Part shown: positions 5,774 to 39,432 of the stretch, in pieces
Layout of the letters: every line of letters begins with the position of its first letter
Numbering within the stretch: position 1 is the first letter of the stretch
Origin: Escherichia coli
GTDB lineage: Bacteria; Pseudomonadota; Gammaproteobacteria; Enterobacterales; Enterobacteriaceae
Reading direction: 5' to 3' (one strand)
DNA: 64,000 bases
Assembly (NCBI RefSeq): GCF_036507355.1
Contig: NZ_AP027877.1
The notes under the pieces: model-generated
Databases searched by the model: none
Seen by the model: only the letters and a program-made list of their open reading frames with translations
Told to the model about the DNA's origin: nothing
Position numbers and translations under genes: made by a program

Positions 5774-7063
5774 ATGACAACGGACGATCTTGCCTTTGAC
5801 CAACGCCATATCTGGCACCCATACACATCCATGACCTCCCCGCTGCCGGTTTATCCGGTGGCGAGCGCCGAAGGTTGCGAGCTAATTTTGTCTGACGGCA
5901 GACGCCTGGTTGACGGTATGTCGTCCTGGTGGGCGGCGATCCACGGCTACAATCACCCGCAGCTTAATGCGGCGATGAAGACGCAAATTGATGCCATGTC
6001 GCATGTGATGTTTGGCGGTATCACTCATGCGCCAGCCATTGAGCTGTGCCGCAAACTGGTGGCGATGACGCCGCAACCGCTGGAGTGCGTTTTTCTCGCG
6101 GACTCCGGTTCTGTAGCGGTGGAAGTGGCGATGAAAATGGCGTTGCAGTACTGGCAAGCCAAAGGCGAAGCGCGCCAGCATTTTCTGACCTTCCGCAATG
6201 GTTATCATGGCGATACCTTTGGCGCGATGTCGGTGTGCGATCCGGACAACTCAATGCACAGCCTGTGGAAAGGCTATCTGCCAGAAAACTTGTTTGCTCC
6301 CGCCCCGCAAAGCCGCATGGATGGTGAATGGGATGAGCGCGATATGGTGGGCTTTGCCCGCCTGATGGCGGCGCATCGTCATGAAATCGCGGCGGTGATC
6401 ATTGAACCGATTGTCCAGGGCGCAGGCGGGATGCGCATGTACCATCCGGAATGGTTAAAACGAATCCGCAAAATGTGCGATCGCGAAGGTATCTTGCTGA
6501 TTGCCGACGAGATCGCCACCGGATTTGGTCGTACCGGCAAACTGTTTGCCTGTGAACATGCAGAAATCGCGCCGGACATTTTGTGCCTCGGTAAAGCCTT
6601 AACCGGCGGCACAATGACCCTTTCCGCCACACTCACCACGCGCGAGGTTGCGGAAACCATTAGTAACGGCGAAGCCGGTTGCTTTATGCATGGGCCAACT
6701 TTTATGGGTAATCCGCTGGCCTGCGCGGCAGCAAACGCCAGCCTCGCCATTATCGAAACTGGTGAATGGCAACAGCAGGTGGCGGCTATTGAAGCGCAGC
6801 TACGCGAGCAATTGGCCCCCGCCCGTGATGCCGAAATGGTTGCCGATGTGCGCGTGCTGGGAGCAATCGGCGTAGTCGAAACAACTCGTCCGGTGAATAT
6901 GGCGGCGCTGCAAAAATTCTTTGTCGAACAGGGTATCTGGATCCGGCCTTTTGGCAAACTGATTTACCTGATGCCGCCCTATATTATTCTCCCGCAACAG
7001 TTGCAGCGTCTGACCGCAGCGGTTAACCGCGCGGTACAGGATGAAACATTTTTTTGCCAATAA
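5774..7063 (+). CDS. bioA: Adenosylmethionine-8-amino-7-oxononanoate aminotransferase
   Basis: ATG at 5774 gives [19 protein letters not shown]... (429 aa); the ORF-track start at 5663 is an upstream extension. Confidence 0.95.
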
Positions 7064-7099
7064 CGGGAAGTCAGCGAGAGGGTTTCTGGCTACACTTTC

Positions 7100-8398
7100 T
7101 GCAAACTAGAAAGGAGGGTTCTTGACGGCTCCCCGCCCCGAATGACGGGGATTCCCACTTCAACGAGCCGAACCTAAGCCGCGTGCTGCGATTCAGGGTT
7201 TACAGGCTCTCCGTGGGCTAACACTGCCAACCCGGCAGCTTTAATATTACGTGCCGCGTTAATGTCGCGATCATAGTCTGCGCCGCATTCAGGGCAGTGC
7301 CATTTACGAACATTAAGAGGCATTTTTTGCATGGTGAAACCGCAGCAACTACAGCATTTTGAGGACGGTAAATACTGGTCAATGGCGACCACTGACCGCT
7401 CGGCCCATTTGCCTTTGTACTGGAGCTGGCGAACAAGTTCGCTCCAGCCTGCGTCAGCTATTGCTTTAGACAGCTTCGGGTTGCGGATCATGTTTTTCAC
7501 CTTGAGGGATTCGACGCAAACAACTTGGTTTTCGTTAATCAGTTTGCGGGACAACTTGTGCAGATTGTCCATCCGGCAATCGGCGATTTTCGCGTGGAGT
7601 CGGGCGACCTTTAAGCGGGCTTTAATACGGTTTCTTGAGCCTTTTTGCTTCCTGCTTAAACATCGCTGTAGCAGCGTTAATCGCTTCGCATATTTAGCGG
7701 TGTGGCGGGGATTGTCGGTTTTGAATCCGGTATCGGTAACGAATAAATCTTTTAAGCCCACATCAATGCCGACCGTTTTAGCGGTAACAGGCATTGATAC
7801 AGGTTCAAACTCACACAGGCAGGAAACAAAGTACCTGCCAGCGCTATCTCTGGAAATGGTAACGGTTGACGGCGCAGAGGGTAATTCTCGACTCCAGCGA
7901 ACATCCAGCGGCGACTTGCTTTTGCTATATACAACTCGCCGTCACGGTGTTTAAACGCGCTGGCAGTGAACTCAGCCACCTGTTTGTGCCGTTTGCTTTT
8001 GAAAGCCGGATATGCAGCTCGTCCGGCAAAGAAGTTAGCAAAGGCGGCTTGTTGGTGGCGCAACGACTGCTGGAGGGGACATTCAGCCATATGTATTCAG
8101 GCTCTTTTTTGAGCGCCGTAAGGCGAGCGTTGGCCTGTAGATAACCGATCTTTTCCTTTCGCTCGTAGTACGCATCGGTACGCCAACGAAGGATGGAATT
8201 GTAGACGAAGCGCACACAGCCGAACGTCTGAGCTAAAAGCTCAGCCTGCTCAGTTGTCGGGTAAAACCGGTATTTATATGCGCGTTTCATGTGTTCACAT
8301 ACTAAAGAGGAAAATGTGATTATGCAAAGTACAGTTAGTCGGAAAACCGCCTCCTTTCCTCCCCGGCCTGAAGGCCGAGGTTTCCCGGAGGCATTCTA
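7100..8398 (-). mobile_element. IS200/IS605-family tnpB-only element (IS609-like), boundaries approximate
   Basis: TnpB-like coding region flanked by hairpin-forming ends (ccccg...cgggg near 7127-7150; cggcctgaaggccg near 8350-8395); no tnpA; occupies the bioA-ybhB spacer. Confidence 0.6.
7174..8290 (-). pseudogene. tnpB: tnpB (IS605 OrfB-type RNA-guided nuclease homolog) interrupted by two frameshifts
   Basis: Three overlapping minus-strand frames (7925..8290 MKRAYKYRFYPT...; 7752..8090 ...FFAGRAAYPAFKSKRHKQ...; 7174..7794 ...CCSCCGFTMQ...CPECGADYDRDINAARNI) together span one TnpB-length protein with the C-terminal zinc finger. Confidence 0.7.
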
Positions 8399-8875
8399 AT
8401 GAAACTCATCAGTAACGATCTGCGCGATGGCGATAAGTTGCCGCATCGTCATGTCTTTAACGGCATGGGTTACGATGGCGATAATATTTCACCGCATCTG
8501 GCGTGGGATGATGTTCCTGCGGGAACGAAAAGTTTTGTTGTCACCTGCTACGACCCGGATGCGCCAACCGGCTCCGGCTGGTGGCACTGGGTAGTTGTTA
8601 ATTTACCCGCTGATACCCGCGTATTACCGCAAGGGTTTGGCTCTGGTCTGGTAGCAATGCCAGACGGCGTTTTGCAGACGCGTACCGATTTTGGTAAAAC
8701 CGGATACGATGGCGCAGCGCCGCCGAAAGGCGAAACCCATCGCTACATTTTTACCGTTCACGCGCTGGATGTAGAGCGTATTGATGTCGATGAAGGAGCC
8801 AGCGGCGCGATGGTCGGGTTTAACGTTCATTTCCACTCTCTGGCAAGCGCCTCGATTACGGCGATGTTTAGTTAA
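8399..8875 (+). CDS. ybhB: PEBP/YbhB-family protein
   Basis: 158-aa ORF MKLISNDLRDGDKLPHRHVF... in the conserved position next to bioA. Confidence 0.9.
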   Translation: MKLISNDLRDGDKLPHRHVFNGMGYDGDNISPHLAWDDVPAGTKSFVVTCYDPDAPTGSGWWHWVVVNLPADTRVLPQGFGSGLVAMPDGVLQTRTDFGKTGYDGAAPPKGETHRYIFTVHALDVERIDVDEGASGAMVGFNVHFHSLASASITAMFS

Positions 8876-9026
8876 TCACTCTGCCAGATGGCGCAATGCT
8901 ATCTGGTATCACTTAAAGGTATTAAAAACAACTTTTTGTCTTTTTACCTTCCCGTTTCGCTCAAGTTAGTATAAAAAAGCAGGCTTCAACGGATTCATTT
9001 TTCTATTTCATAGCCCGGAGCAACCT

Positions 9027-10310
9027 GTGAACACATTTTCAGTTTCCCGTCTGGCGCTGGCATTGGCTTTTGGCGTGACGCTGACCGCCTGTAGCTCAAC
9101 ACCACCCGATCAACGTCCTTCTGATCAAACTGCGCCTGGTACCTCTTCTCGCCCGATTCTGTCGGCAAAAGAAGCGCAGAATTTCGATGCTCAACACTAT
9201 TTTGCATCCCTGACACCAGGTGCTGCAGCGTGGAATCCTTCCCCGATTACCCTGCCTACACAACCTGACTTTGTTGTCGGCCCGGCGGGTACTCAAGGTG
9301 TAACGCATACCACGATTCAGGCGGCGGTAGATGCGGCAATTATCAAGCGTACCAACAAGCGCCAGTATATTGCCGTGATGCCTGGTGAGTATCAGGGAAC
9401 GGTGTATGTCCCTGCCGCTCCGGGTGGAATTACTCTGTACGGTACAGGTGAAAAACCGATTGATGTGAAGATTGGGCTTTCCCTTGATGGGGGTATGAGC
9501 CCTGCCGACTGGCGTCACGACGTCAACCCGCGCGGCAAATATATGCCAGGTAAACCAGCGTGGTATATGTACGATAGCTGCCAGAGCAAACGCAGCGACA
9601 GTATCGGTGTTCTCTGCTCTGCGGTCTTCTGGTCACAAAACAATGGCCTGCAACTGCAAAACCTGACCATCGAAAACACGCTGGGCGATAGCGTAGATGC
9701 GGGTAACCATCCGGCGGTGGCACTGCGTACTGATGGTGACCAGGTACAGATTAACAACGTTAACATTCTCGGTCGTCAGAACACCTTCTTTGTCACCAAC
9801 AGCGGTGTGCAGAACCGTCTGGAAACCAACCGTCAGCCGCGTACGCTGGTGACCAACAGCTATATTGAAGGGGATGTGGATATCGTTTCTGGTCGCGGTG
9901 CAGTGGTGTTCGATAACACCGAATTCCGCGTGGTGAACTCACGTACTCAGCAAGAAGCGTATGTGTTTGCACCGGCTACGCTGTCCAACATCTATTACGG
10001 TTTCCTCGCCGTAAACAGCCGTTTCAATGCTTCCGGTGATGGCGTGGCGCAACTGGGCCGCTCGCTGGATGTTGATGCCAATACCAACGGTCAGGTGGTG
10101 ATCCGTGATAGCGCCATCAACGAAGGTTTTAACACGGTTAAACCGTGGGGCGATGCGGTGATCTCTAATCGTCCGTTTGCGGGTAATACCGGCAGCGTTG
10201 ACGATAGCGACGAAATACAGCGCAATCTGAATGACACTAACTACAACCGCATGTGGGAATACAATAACCGCGGCGTGGGTAGCAAAGTGGTTGCAGAGGC
10301 GAAGAAGTAA
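9027..10310 (+). CDS. ybhC: Outer-membrane lipoprotein YbhC (pectinesterase-like fold)
   Basis: GTG start; lipoprotein signal ...LTACSS; 427 aa. Confidence 0.9.
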   Translation: MNTFSVSRLALALAFGVTLTACSSTPPDQRPSDQTAPGTSSRPILSAKEAQNFDAQHYFASLTPGAAAWNPSPITLPTQPDFVVGPAGTQGVTHTTIQAAVDAAIIKRTNKRQYIAVMPGEYQGTVYVPAAPGGITLYGTGEKPIDVKIGLSLDGGMSPADWRHDVNPRGKYMPGKPAWYMYDSCQSKRSDSIGVLCSAVFWSQNNGLQLQNLTIENTLGDSVDAGNHPAVALRTDGDQVQINNVNILGRQNTFFVTNSGVQNRLETNRQPRTLVTNSYIEGDVDIVSGRGAVVFDNTEFRVVNSRTQQEAYVFAPATLSNIYYGFLAVNSRFNASGDGVAQLGRSLDVDANTNGQVVIRDSAINEGFNTVKPWGDAVISNRPFAGNTGSVDDSDEIQRNLNDTNYNRMWEYNNRGVGSKVVAEAKK

Positions 10311-10435: not shown

Positions 10436-11729
<1,294 letters not shown>

Positions 11730-36686: not shown

Positions 36687-37087
36687 CTTACCATCTCGTT
36701 TTACAGGCTTAACGTTAAAACCGACATAAGCGTCATATTCGCTGTTATCGGTGTAATTTGTTTTATATACTAAACAAGATAGTCGAATGGTGGGGAAAAG
36801 TCACTCGAATTACGCCTAATGTGCAGGATGCGTCATTTTACGCCTAATTCCACCGACATAGAGTTGCTTGCACAGTAAGCTCTGACTATGTCATCAGGTT
36901 TACAAAGTTAAATTGAGGGATGCCTGAATAGCAAAAAAGCGTCTTTAGGGCGCTTTTTTACATTGGTGGGTCGTGCAGGATGACTCGCTTCGCTCGCCCT
37001 TCGGGCCGTCGCCGCGAGCGGCTCCGTTGTTTCGCTGCGCTCAACTCGAACCTGCTGCAGGTTCGAATCTTTGAATATCTCAGATAG

Positions 37088-37116
37088 CAAAAAAGCGCCT
37101 TTAGGGCGCTTTTTTA
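37088..37116 (-). terminator. Rho-independent terminator after the last tRNA-Lys
   Basis: aaaaaagcgcc-ttta-gggcgctttttt hairpin flanked by A/T runs; a second near-identical copy lies at about 36930-36960. Confidence 0.7.
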
Positions 37117-37119
37117 CAT

Positions 37120-37195
37120 TGGTGGGTCGTGCAGGATTCGAACCTGCGACCAATTGATTAAAAGTCAACTGCTCTACCAACTGAGCTAACGACCC
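37120..37195 (-). tRNA. lysQ: tRNA-Lys (UUU)
   Basis: Exact reverse complement of GGGTCGTTAGCTCAGTTGGTAGAGCAGTTGACTTTTAATC...CCA; 76 nt. Confidence 0.93.
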
Positions 37196-37228
37196 CTTGC
37201 GGGATTATGCTGCTTTAATCATTCAGGA

Positions 37229-37304
37229 TGGTGGGTCGTGCAGGATTCGAACCTGCGACCAATTGATTAAAAGTCAACTGCTCTACCAACTGAGCTAACG
37301 ACCC
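37229..37304 (-). tRNA. lysZ: tRNA-Lys (UUU)
   Basis: 76-nt copy identical to the other tRNA-Lys genes. Confidence 0.93.
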
Positions 37305-37450
37305 ATACGGGTGTTACCTGAAAGATTTCTACTCGGAACCAATCTTTAAAATTGGTGGGTCGTGCAGGATGACTCGCTTCGCTCGCCCTACGGGCCGTTG
37401 CTGGCGCAACGTTATCCTTCACGCTTAACATCTGAGTTTGATGTTAAAAT

Positions 37451-37526
37451 TGGTGGGTCGTGCAGGATTCGAACCTGCGACCAATTGATTAAAAGTCAAC
37501 TGCTCTACCAACTGAGCTAACGACCC
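37451..37526 (-). tRNA. lysY: tRNA-Lys (UUU)
   Basis: 76-nt copy identical to the other tRNA-Lys genes. Confidence 0.93.
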
Positions 37527-37529
37527 GAG

Positions 37530-37605
37530 TGGTGGGTGATGACGGGATCGAACCGCCGACCCCCTCCTTGTAAGGGAGGTGCTCTCCCAGCTGAGCTAAT
37601 CACCC
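37530..37605 (-). tRNA. valZ: tRNA-Val (UAC)
   Basis: Reverse complement of GGGTGATTAGCTCAGCTGGGAGAGCACCTCCCTTACAAGGAGG...CCA. Confidence 0.93.
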
Positions 37606-37656
37606 GATACTGCGCTGGATACTACAAACTACTTCCACCGAACCCACCGTAATTAG

Positions 37657-37732
37657 TGGTGGGTCGTGCAGGATTCGAACCTGCGACCAATTGATTAAAA
37701 GTCAACTGCTCTACCAACTGAGCTAACGACCC
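37657..37732 (-). tRNA. lysW: tRNA-Lys (UUU)
   Basis: 76-nt copy identical to the other tRNA-Lys genes. Confidence 0.93.
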
Positions 37733-37734
37733 GG

Positions 37735-37810
37735 TGGTGGGTGATGACGGGATCGAACCGCCGACCCCCTCCTTGTAAGGGAGGTGCTCTCCCAGCTGAG
37801 CTAATCACCC
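37735..37810 (-). tRNA. valT: tRNA-Val (UAC)
   Basis: 76-nt tRNA-Val copy. Confidence 0.93.
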
Positions 37811-37845
37811 GATACTACGCTGGATACTACAACTAACTAGGTTAG

Positions 37846-37921
37846 TGGTGGGTCGTGCAGGATTCGAACCTGCGACCAATTGATTAAAAGTCAACTGCTC
37901 TACCAACTGAGCTAACGACCC
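37846..37921 (-). tRNA. lysT: tRNA-Lys (UUU)
   Basis: 76-nt tRNA-Lys copy, first gene of the operon. Confidence 0.93.
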
Positions 37922-38085
37922 ACTTTTTCGTTGCTTTCGGTTTGTTTGATATCCCGTGGCAACGGCGGCATATATTACTGATTTCAGACTTGAGCGCAAC
38001 AAAAATTTCGATGTAGATCACTCAACTGCTTATGATTCGCACGACACGACCAGAAATAATGCGACTTCTGGTCGTGTGTTATGCA

Positions 38086-38877
38086 TTACATCGCGTTCAG
38101 ACGTTTTTGTGCCTGTTTAGCGCCATCAGTACCAGGGTATTTACTGATAACCTGCTGGTATACGGCTTTCGCTTTTGCGGTGTCACCTTTGTCCTGCATG
38201 ATGACGCCGACTTTAAACATCGCATCTGCAGCCTTTGGTGACTTCGGATAGTTTTTCACTACCGAAGCAAAATAGTACGCCGCATCATCTTTTTTACCCT
38301 TGTTGTAGTTTAACTGACCCAGCCAATAATTGGCGTTTGGCAGGTAAGTTGAATCAGGGTAATTTTTGATGAAATTCTGAAATGCCACCATTGCGTCATC
38401 CTGGCGGGATTTATCCTGCACCAGCGCAATAGCTGCATTGTAATCCGTGTTTGCATCACCGCTTTTCACCGGCGCGCCAGCATTCGCAGTACCAGCATCA
38501 GCTGTCGGCGTCGTTGATGCCGCCGCACCGCTTTGATCACCGCTGGTTGATTGCGCCGCTGCACCACCGCTGCTGAGGCTGTCGATCTGCAACAGGATCT
38601 GCTTTTGCCGCTCCACGACCTGATTCAGTTGATACTGATTTTCCTGAATCTGACCACGCAGGGAATCAATATCGGATTGATTATCAGAGAGTTGTTGCTG
38701 GAGTTGGGTTAAAAGCTGGCTGTGAGCATTAGAAATACGCTCAAGTTGAGTGACGCGGTCTTCGACCGAGCCTGAGCCGACACTACTGATTGGTGCCTGA
38801 GCAAAAGCGGCCCAGGGGGCCGCTATACCAACCAGTAACGACAGACTCAATAGTTGATGTCTGAAGTTACTGCTCAT
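38086..38877 (-). CDS. cpoB: Cell-division coordinator CpoB (YbgF), TPR protein
   Basis: 263 aa with signal peptide, coiled coil and C-terminal TPR repeats; downstream of pal. Confidence 0.93.
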   Translation of the reverse strand: MSSNFRHQLLSLSLLVGIAAPWAAFAQAPISSVGSGSVEDRVTQLERISNAHSQLLTQLQQQLSDNQSDIDSLRGQIQENQYQLNQVVERQKQILLQIDSLSSGGAAAQSTSGDQSGAAASTTPTADAGTANAGAPVKSGDANTDYNAAIALVQDKSRQDDAMVAFQNFIKNYPDSTYLPNANYWLGQLNYNKGKKDDAAYYFASVVKNYPKSPKAADAMFKVGVIMQDKGDTAKAKAVYQQVISKYPGTDGAKQAQKRLNAM

Positions 38878-38886
38878 GCAATTCTC

Positions 38887-39432
<546 letters not shown>

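Follow-up and report, generated by a model that had tools for sequence, protein, structure and literature searches.

The insertion between bioA and ybhB

The sequence analysed here is a stretch of 64,000 nucleotides (the window) from the Escherichia coli contig NZ_AP027877.1 (RefSeq assembly GCF_036507355.1), in which bioA and ybhB are separated by three overlapping minus-strand open reading frames (ORFs; 8290-7925, 8090-7752, and 7794-7174) that encode pieces of a single TnpB protein. The locus is a known insertion sequence (IS), for which PGAP already gives a frameshifted TnpB gene, and is in itself ordinary. Its boundaries were set by comparison with an empty site (L001), which reads ...AAAGGAGGGTTC/ATGAAACTC where the window has ...AAAGGAGGGTTC/TTGACGG...GGCATTCTA/ATGAAACTC; the letters at the two junctions of the occupied site are ...AAAGGAGGGTTC/TTGACGGCTCCCC...GGAGGCATTCTA/ATGAAACTC. 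This comparison delimits a full-length tnpB-only element of 1277 bp, intact copies of which measure 1291 bp, with no target-site duplication around it. The insertion point falls exactly between the Shine-Dalgarno sequence of ybhB and its ATG, and related elements stay similar up to precisely these limits: on the right the last shared letters are GTCAA, and on the left similarity ceases exactly at the target motif. The features of the locus are collected in Table 1.

The full 7064-8398 stretch was found by megablast in 381 of 5426 complete E. coli genomes. About 5000 further genomes matched over no more than the initial ~60 nt; there the annotation places ybhB under the match and directly following it, as expected of empty sites, and the bioA-ybhB spacer measures 58 nt in both of the empty sites that we opened. 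Both chromosomal copies opened lie between bioA and ybhB, and at the sensitivity of megablast no second copy of the element was detected in the matching genomes.

A published survey of insertion sequences (PMC9956272, Table S1) lists ISEc42 as an E. coli element of the IS1341 group with a TnpB of 376 amino acids, a length of 1294-1295 bp, TCAT at the left and TCAA at the right, and 165 copies in 164 genomes. The element described here matches ISEc42 by all the tabulated properties: E. coli as host, tnpB as the only gene, a TnpB of 376 amino acids, TCAT and TCAA at the ends, and about one copy per genome, while the tabulated length compares with 1291 bp for the intact copies plus the 4-nt target. 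The window copy differs in being 14 bp shorter and a pseudogene.

Table 1. Features of the bioA-ybhB region in the window (positions are those of the whole 64,000-nt stretch).
Feature	Position	Strand	Description	Basis
bioA	5774-7063	+	429 amino acids; stop 58 nt before the right end of the element
Predicted guide	7106-7121	-	16 nt, GAACCCUCCUUUCUAG; equals the right-end flank	Just outside the conserved GTCAA end
Whole element	7122-8398	-	ISEc42-like, IS1341 group of IS200/IS605	Empty-site comparison, similarity limits of relatives, table row of ISEc42
Omega-RNA scaffold	7122-7248	-	Shares ~70 nt with the 3' end of tnpB and takes in the whole right end; helices within 7122-7239
Right-end subterminal hairpin	7130-7151	-	TCCCCGTCATTCGGGGCGGGGA, followed by terminal GTCAA at 7122-7126
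tnpB pseudogene	7174-8290	-	13-bp and 1-bp deletions; H344Y at 7273-7275	PGAP "frameshifted" in strain 33F4
Left end	8291-8398	-	108 nt; inner hairpin at 8361-8380; outer stem TGCCTCC/GGAGGCG at 8387-8393 and 8348-8354
Promoter-like site facing ybhB	8294-8323	+	In the left end; TTCACA, 18 nt, TG-GATTAT	Consensus scan
Tetranucleotide GAAA	8381-8384	-	Covaries with the target	31 loci compared
Candidate replacement ribosome-binding site	8387-8391	+	GGAGG from the left end, 7 nt before the ybhB ATG
Target/transposon-adjacent motif	8399-8402	-	TCAT, reverse complement of ATGA (ybhB start codon and next base)
ybhB	8399-8875	+	158 amino acids, intact; start codon abuts the left end of the element

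The TnpB protein and the lesions of its gene

The same insertion in strain SCU-125 (L002) carries an uninterrupted gene for 376 amino acids, annotated as "RNA-guided endonuclease InsQ/TnpB family protein," and most carriers still encode this protein, which is closely related to the TnpB of ISDra2 from Deinococcus radiodurans. The intact allele contains the Pfam domains HTH_OrfB_IS605 (PF12323), OrfB_IS605 (PF01385), and the Cas12f1-like TNB zinc-ribbon (PF07282), scores 369.5 bits against the NCBIfam model guided_TnpB (cut-off 100), and aligns over its full length with the ISDra2 TnpB structures 8exa and 8h1j (E 9e-75). The catalytic residues of the latter are D191, E278, and D361 (PMC10097598). 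They align with D181, E265, and D347 of the E. coli protein, which form its RuvC triad, and the zinc-finger cysteines of the two proteins align as well.

The three frames of the window encode this same protein in pieces. Searched by tblastn with the intact TnpB, the window gave amino acids 1-70 at 8290-8081, 76-129 at 8078-7917, and 127-376 at 7926-7177, each in a different frame. Aligned with the SCU-125 copy, the window is missing 13 bp after 8079 and 1 bp after 7920; these deletions break the frame at codons ~71 and ~128, and 15 substitutions separate the two copies within the element. A functional TnpB nuclease calls for an uninterrupted ORF, and here it is split by the two deletions; the longest one remaining (206 amino acids, with the RuvC domain and the zinc finger) has no obvious ribosome-binding site. 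A programmed frameshift was considered for this arrangement and rejected, since a 13-bp deletion cannot be one.

Both deletion junctions occur together in the same 7 of the 5426 complete genomes, which come from at least four sources (meat, chicken, a calf farm, and two human isolates), while the undeleted junctions are found in 333 and 334 genomes, Nissle 1917 among them. Being shared by seven independent genomes, the frameshifts are real and mark a minority lineage. One member of it, strain 33F4, has the same allele with both deletions, flagged as "frameshifted" by PGAP. The window also carries H344Y, which adjoins the last catalytic aspartate. Strain 33F4 lacks the changes of the window at 7230 and 7275 (it has G at both), so these, H344Y included, arose later, in the window's own lineage.

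Element ends, target rule, and the absence of tnpA

The ends are those of an IS200/IS605 element: both have a subterminal hairpin on the same strand, terminal inverted repeats are absent, and the target is not duplicated. The two hairpins form a direct repeat, and their DNA folds have energies of -13.5 and -8.2 kcal/mol. Across 31 loci the element family splits into TCAT, TTAT, and TTAC subfamilies, named here by their targets, and a change of target goes with a change in the tetranucleotide just 5' of the left-end hairpin (GAnA in the TCAT elements, AAnA in TTAT, AAAG in TTAC). Position 2 of the target tracks position 1 of the left-end tetranucleotide in 31/31 loci, and position 4 tracks position 4 in all but one (30/31). 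A target read by the tetranucleotide just 5' of the left-end hairpin is the rule established for the TnpA of IS608 from Helicobacter pylori, which also has a right end finishing in TCAA. The AAAG of the TTAC subfamily is also the tetranucleotide of IS608. This covariation argues that the elements are moved in trans by a Y1 transposase: IS608 has a TnpA gene of its own, whereas ISEc42-like elements would need one from elsewhere, and none was found in the 64-kb window.

There is no room for another gene inside the element, the left end being 108 nt long and the right end 52 nt. No significant TnpA match was obtained in the 64-kb window, a weak negative because of the query used, nor was a second TnpB detected there by tblastn. 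The genome scan retrieved 40 relatives with 63-87% protein identity from Escherichia, Salmonella, Klebsiella, Serratia, Providencia, Pseudomonas, Zobellella, Endozoicomonas, and other genera. All of them, together with the four distinct full-length plasmid copies opened (in which the left end is again 108 nt), have the same layout of left end, tnpB, and right end, without tnpA. With this layout throughout, the lack of tnpA is the design of the IS1341 group and not a product of decay. In one Pseudomonas genome, near-identical copies (L016 and L018) occupy different sites, which shows that the family moves.

In the light of these data, most of what the first-pass annotation of this stretch had proposed from the letters alone holds good. 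It had called a tnpB-only IS200/IS605 element between bioA and ybhB, with which the domains, the ends, and the empty-site comparison agree; the RuvC-like nuclease with a C-terminal zinc finger is borne out by the Pfam, NCBIfam, and ISDra2 structure matches, none of which points to an unrelated family. The two suspected frameshifts were located by the alignment with SCU-125 and recur in the seven genomes, the predicted hairpins are present on both sides, and the missing tnpA was indeed found neither in the element nor in the 64 kb, this being the normal state of the family. The span that it gave (7100-8398) was right at 8398 but included 22 nt of flank at the other side, where the true start is 7122. 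Its term "remnant" is misleading: both ends are complete, the layout without tnpA is normal for the relatives, and decay is limited to the ORF.

Several other copies and motifs are of note. Many plasmids (matches H99-H107, from Klebsiella and E. coli) contain only the C-terminal half of a relative, unannotated (residues 177-376, 88.5% identity), and these truncated copies should still include the omega-RNA region. The stop codon of an identical tnpB forms the exact end of seventeen predicted proviral contigs (L046-L062). The provirus callers have probably run a prophage near the bio region up to the element, and a boundary artefact is likelier here than a phage-borne copy. Directly before the tnpB start lies an inverted repeat, TCACAT...ATGTGA (8291-8330, minus strand), which reads TTACAT...ATGTAA in relatives and seems to covary; by analogy it may be a translational control hairpin like that of the IS200 tnpA mRNA.

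A conserved omega-RNA scaffold and its predicted guide

The RNA was studied in an alignment of 18 distinct relatives that covered the right end and the final ~75 nt of tnpB. RNAalifold found 29 pairs in six helices, 20 of them with compensatory changes; 96.2% of the cells are paired, against 38-51% in slid controls, and the observed values were reached by 0/500 shuffles on four of five measures and by 2/500 on the fifth. A covariance model (R1) built from the 16 non-E. coli sequences has a single match in the window, at 7122-7248 on the minus strand, over the full length of the model (130.5 bits, E 1.6e-38). Judged by this match, the omega-RNA scaffold of the window copy is intact in sequence. 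The claim of structure is made because of the covariation and not because of folding energy, the single-sequence fold of 7102-7260 being unexceptional (z = -1.34). At loop position 7230 the window has U, where all 16 non-E. coli relatives have C; the same change is synonymous (Leu) in tnpB.

Like the omega-RNA of ISDra2, this RNA spans the tnpB 3' end together with the right end of an element finishing in ...TCAA. The scaffold is ~118 nt long, and its helices follow the order of ISDra2 stems 2, 3a, 3b, and 4, with an extra 5' hairpin whose 5-nt loop is unlike ISDra2 stem 1. ISDra2 also differs in having tnpA and a TTGAT target, where the ISEc42-like family has no tnpA and a TCAT target. An ISDra2-type pseudoknot of the 3' tail with a 5' segment could not be demonstrated, the candidate pairings (UUGA/UCAA and GGC/GUC) being either invariant or part of a covarying helix, and the consensus promoter scan gave no promoter for tnpB or the omega-RNA on the minus strand.

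The guide is predicted to be the 16 nt just outside the element, a length taken by inference from ISDra2 (PMC10097598). This region holds the original Shine-Dalgarno sequence of ybhB (AAAGGAGGGTTC, 7110-7121, plus strand), and it is identical to the sequence that follows TCAT at the empty site L001, which reads TCAT-GAACCCTCCTTTCTAGTTTGCA. Among the intact copies in a phylogroup B2 background, L005 has a guide matching the B2 empty site (ST131) in full, while the guide of L002 has one mismatch, at seed position 2. The polymorphisms of guide and flank at 7107 and 7119-7120, seen also in L002, L005, and L084, follow the host background, so that the predicted guides track the local allele.

No Rfam family reached its gathering score in 6500-9200 or, at this locus, in the scan of the whole window, and the scan of the locus up to E 1 gave no omega-RNA family. 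The Rfam/Infernal search by which the first-pass annotation had proposed to find one was thus empty as far as Rfam families go, although the purpose-built model does match the right end. The right-end-derived guide RNA that it had placed within 7080-7300 agrees well with scaffold and guide as defined here. Its further suggestion, that a non-coding transcript may persist, stands as regards the scaffold, intact in sequence only, and is doubtful as regards function (see below). Faint Rfam matches of 18.7 bits each to sot0042 (threshold 88) and to HgcC (threshold 50), the latter also an RNA associated with tnpB, fall on the left-end hairpin (8341-8504, minus strand), and the terminal hairpin of both RNAs resembles the end hairpins of ISEc42-like elements. 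The first of them is a haloarchaeal RNA that overlaps the 3' end of IS1341-type tnpB genes (PMC4615843).

TCAT-type elements often abut host start codons

The position of the window copy against the ATG of ybhB is shared by most of its TCAT-type relatives. The genome scan gave 13 independent TCAT sites, and in 12 of them an opposite-strand ORF of 150-779 codons begins with an ATG that abuts the left end. The same is seen with a host ATG at two of three further TCAT sites from viral contigs, and at four annotated plasmid sites the starts of traX, trbC, traW, and a phage minor-tail gene lie exactly 108 nt before the tnpB ATG. In total, 18 of 20 independent TCAT sites abut the ATG of a divergent host gene (window positions 8399-8402 and loci L004, L007, L008, L010, L015, L016, L018, L032, L033, L040, and L041, with L063, L074, L085, L087, L088, and L090), compared with a background of 21/86 non-disruptive ATGA sites (24%) that are start codons in 50 kb of annotated E. 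coli (P ~1e-9). Metagenomes (L091-L210) were scanned with the left-end hairpin and the GAAA tetranucleotide, leaving the target unspecified. An ORF of at least 80 codons opens at the abutting ATG in 44 of the 70 non-redundant metagenomic TCAT sites with enough flank (background 27%, P ~5e-10). The TTAT and TTAC relatives showed no start-codon pattern and occupy ordinary intergenic positions.

On the host strand the right-end GTCAA becomes TTGAC, and in six sites (L033, L063, L085/L086, L088, L090, and L007) an upstream host ORF of 127-804 codons stops at its TGA; among these ORFs are an annotated DUF2726 gene, a tail gene, and trbI. This implies that the sites were overlapping stop/start junctions (ATGA or TAATG) inside operons such as tra and phage tail genes. 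Insertion at such junctions kept the downstream ATG and re-created the upstream stop, leaving both genes intact. In L004 and L008, a TAA lying 17 nt inside the right end terminates the upstream ORF. At three TTAT/TTAC sites (L013, L022, and L039) the right-end TGA also closes a host ORF, of 211-318 codons, which would fit insertion just before an A/TAA or G/TAA stop, the element supplying a replacement stop.

A tentative interpretation, which could well prove wrong, is that TCAT-type IS200/IS605 elements are built to dock antisense on ATGA start codons so that both neighbouring genes survive. The pattern could be due to insertion bias or to selection after insertion. No description of start-codon docking by IS200/IS605 or TnpB elements was found in the literature searched.

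The left end and the expression of ybhB

The insertion separated ybhB from its Shine-Dalgarno sequence, and ybhB probably relies for its translation on the GGAGG of the left end, just before its ATG. Among the 20 related TCAT sites, GGAGG is found in 12 and GGGGG in 2 more (14/20), 7-8 nt before the host ATG. In the metagenomic set, Shine-Dalgarno-like motifs in the left end are no commoner with a long ORF (26/47) than without one (9/23), so the idea of a replacement ribosome-binding site holds for the enterobacterial clade only. The number of promoter-like sites was not above the shuffled expectation, and the one facing ybhB at 8294-8323 is a lead only.

Other features of the window

Just beyond ybhC, a minus-strand ORF of 326 amino acids (10485-11465) matches the NCBIfam model "IS110 family RNA-guided transposase" with 256 bits (cut-off 140). 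Further on, also on the minus strand, 36964-38986 holds a tRNA cluster with seven tRNA matches, two RtT RNA matches, and the CpoB/ybgF thermometer; strain SCU-125 has a comparable tRNA-Lys/Val cluster upstream of cpoB.

Origin and fate of the element

The element is very probably a non-autonomous, TnpB-only IS matching ISEc42, whose tnpB was killed by two deletions and which is now an immobile fossil with its omega-RNA region intact in sequence. It would once have inserted 3' of TCAT on the minus strand, between the ribosome-binding site of ybhB and the ATG. TnpB and its omega-RNA cut the donor joint (adjacent motif plus right-end flank) after excision, and recombination restores the element (bioRxiv 10.1101/2023.03.14.532601). 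Intact ISEc42 copies seem, from their sequence, to have everything needed for this cutting. The target of an intact ISEc42 TnpB with its right end would take the form TCAT-GAACCCTCCTTTCTAG, and the ribonucleoprotein of an intact copy would cut the empty bioA-ybhB site (TCAT then GAACCCTCC...), favouring retention of the element. In the lineage of the window, the 13-bp and 1-bp deletions destroyed the frame so that no nuclease is made, and a copy with neither nuclease nor tnpA would be unable to move.

What then remains of the RNA is probably of little consequence. Processing of the TnpB mRNA to omega-RNA is carried out by TnpB itself (PMC10278001), and with this dependence and no second copy detected, a functional ribonucleoprotein is unlikely. 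Because TnpB is needed both to process and to bind it, the mature omega-RNA probably neither accumulates nor acts, the transcript being left unprocessed and useless. We read the omega-RNA region of the window copy as simply not yet decayed. A similar state has been described in Geobacillus stearothermophilus, where copies that have decayed can lack a working nuclease and yet retain an omega-RNA (Meers et al., bioRxiv 10.1101/2023.03.14.532601). The non-autonomous tnpB-only elements and palindrome-associated transposable elements (PATEs) of that species also lack tnpA and are mobilised in trans, and their donor joint is cut by TnpB with its omega-RNA (same source). Geobacillus genomes, however, hold many coexisting copies, in which orphan RNAs can borrow a TnpB, whereas the E. 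coli element is present as a single copy per genome.

Some points weigh against this account of an ISEc42 fossil. The identity with ISEc42 comes from tabulated properties and not from alignment to the ISfinder reference. The 64-kb negative for TnpA is weak for the reason given above, and since the window covers 64 kb only, a TnpA or a compatible TnpB may lie elsewhere in the genome. The U at 7230 may slightly impair the scaffold, and the left-end GGAGG, which is modelled in a stem with GCCTCC, could be masked in the ybhB mRNA.

Three other explanations can be set against it. Were the frameshifts sequencing or assembly errors, the window would hold an active TnpB/omega-RNA unit, like the ~334 genomes with an undeleted copy, and a 1-bp indel is indeed a common type of error. 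This explanation is essentially refuted by the joint occurrence of both deletions, the 13-bp one included, in seven independent complete assemblies, and the extra changes of the window (R to C, G to E, and H344Y) are those expected of a decaying gene. It is also very improbable that the element is the leftover of a two-gene IS605-type element with tnpA and tnpB that lost tnpA by deletion. Many IS200/IS605 elements do have tnpA upstream of tnpB, but the 108-nt left end spans all the way from the target motif to the tnpB ATG and aligns end to end with tnpA-less relatives of many genera, and published surveys class ISEc42 in the IS1341 group, without sequence derived from a Y1 transposase.

The remaining explanation is co-option, in which the omega-RNA or the left end serves the host, for instance by driving or regulating ybhB, and thereby keeps the dead copy in place. 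The GGAGG 7 nt before the ybhB ATG and the promoter-like site facing ybhB would suit such a role, as would a scaffold that is intact although tnpB is dead and a guide complementary to the original ribosome-binding site of ybhB on the bioA read-through transcript. We consider it unlikely, if somewhat less so than the loss of tnpA: the pseudogene allele is rare (7 genomes), so that an intact 127-nt scaffold needs no selection, the promoter-like count does not exceed chance, and the RuvC residues are kept in intact copies, unlike in the nuclease-dead, domesticated TldR. Domestication of the TldR type was likewise rejected for the window copy, a plain frameshifted pseudogene.

Accepting the reading as an ISEc42-matching fossil, the locus itself matters little, other than as a natural example between an "active" state (~334 genomes, including the probiotic Nissle 1917) and a "dead, guide-RNA region intact" one (7 genomes). 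The part worth attention is the docking on start codons at the level of the family. If the docking is real, with a replacement stop and ribosome-binding site carried on the ends, the recognition site of TnpB (motif plus seed) would be a host start codon with its ribosome-binding region, which is hard for the host to mutate and escape, and this would bear on how selfish nucleases avoid target escape. It would also make clear why conjugation and phage-tail operons are not killed by a 1.3-kb element within them, and would add to the self-splicing IStrons another design principle of "harmless" insertion.

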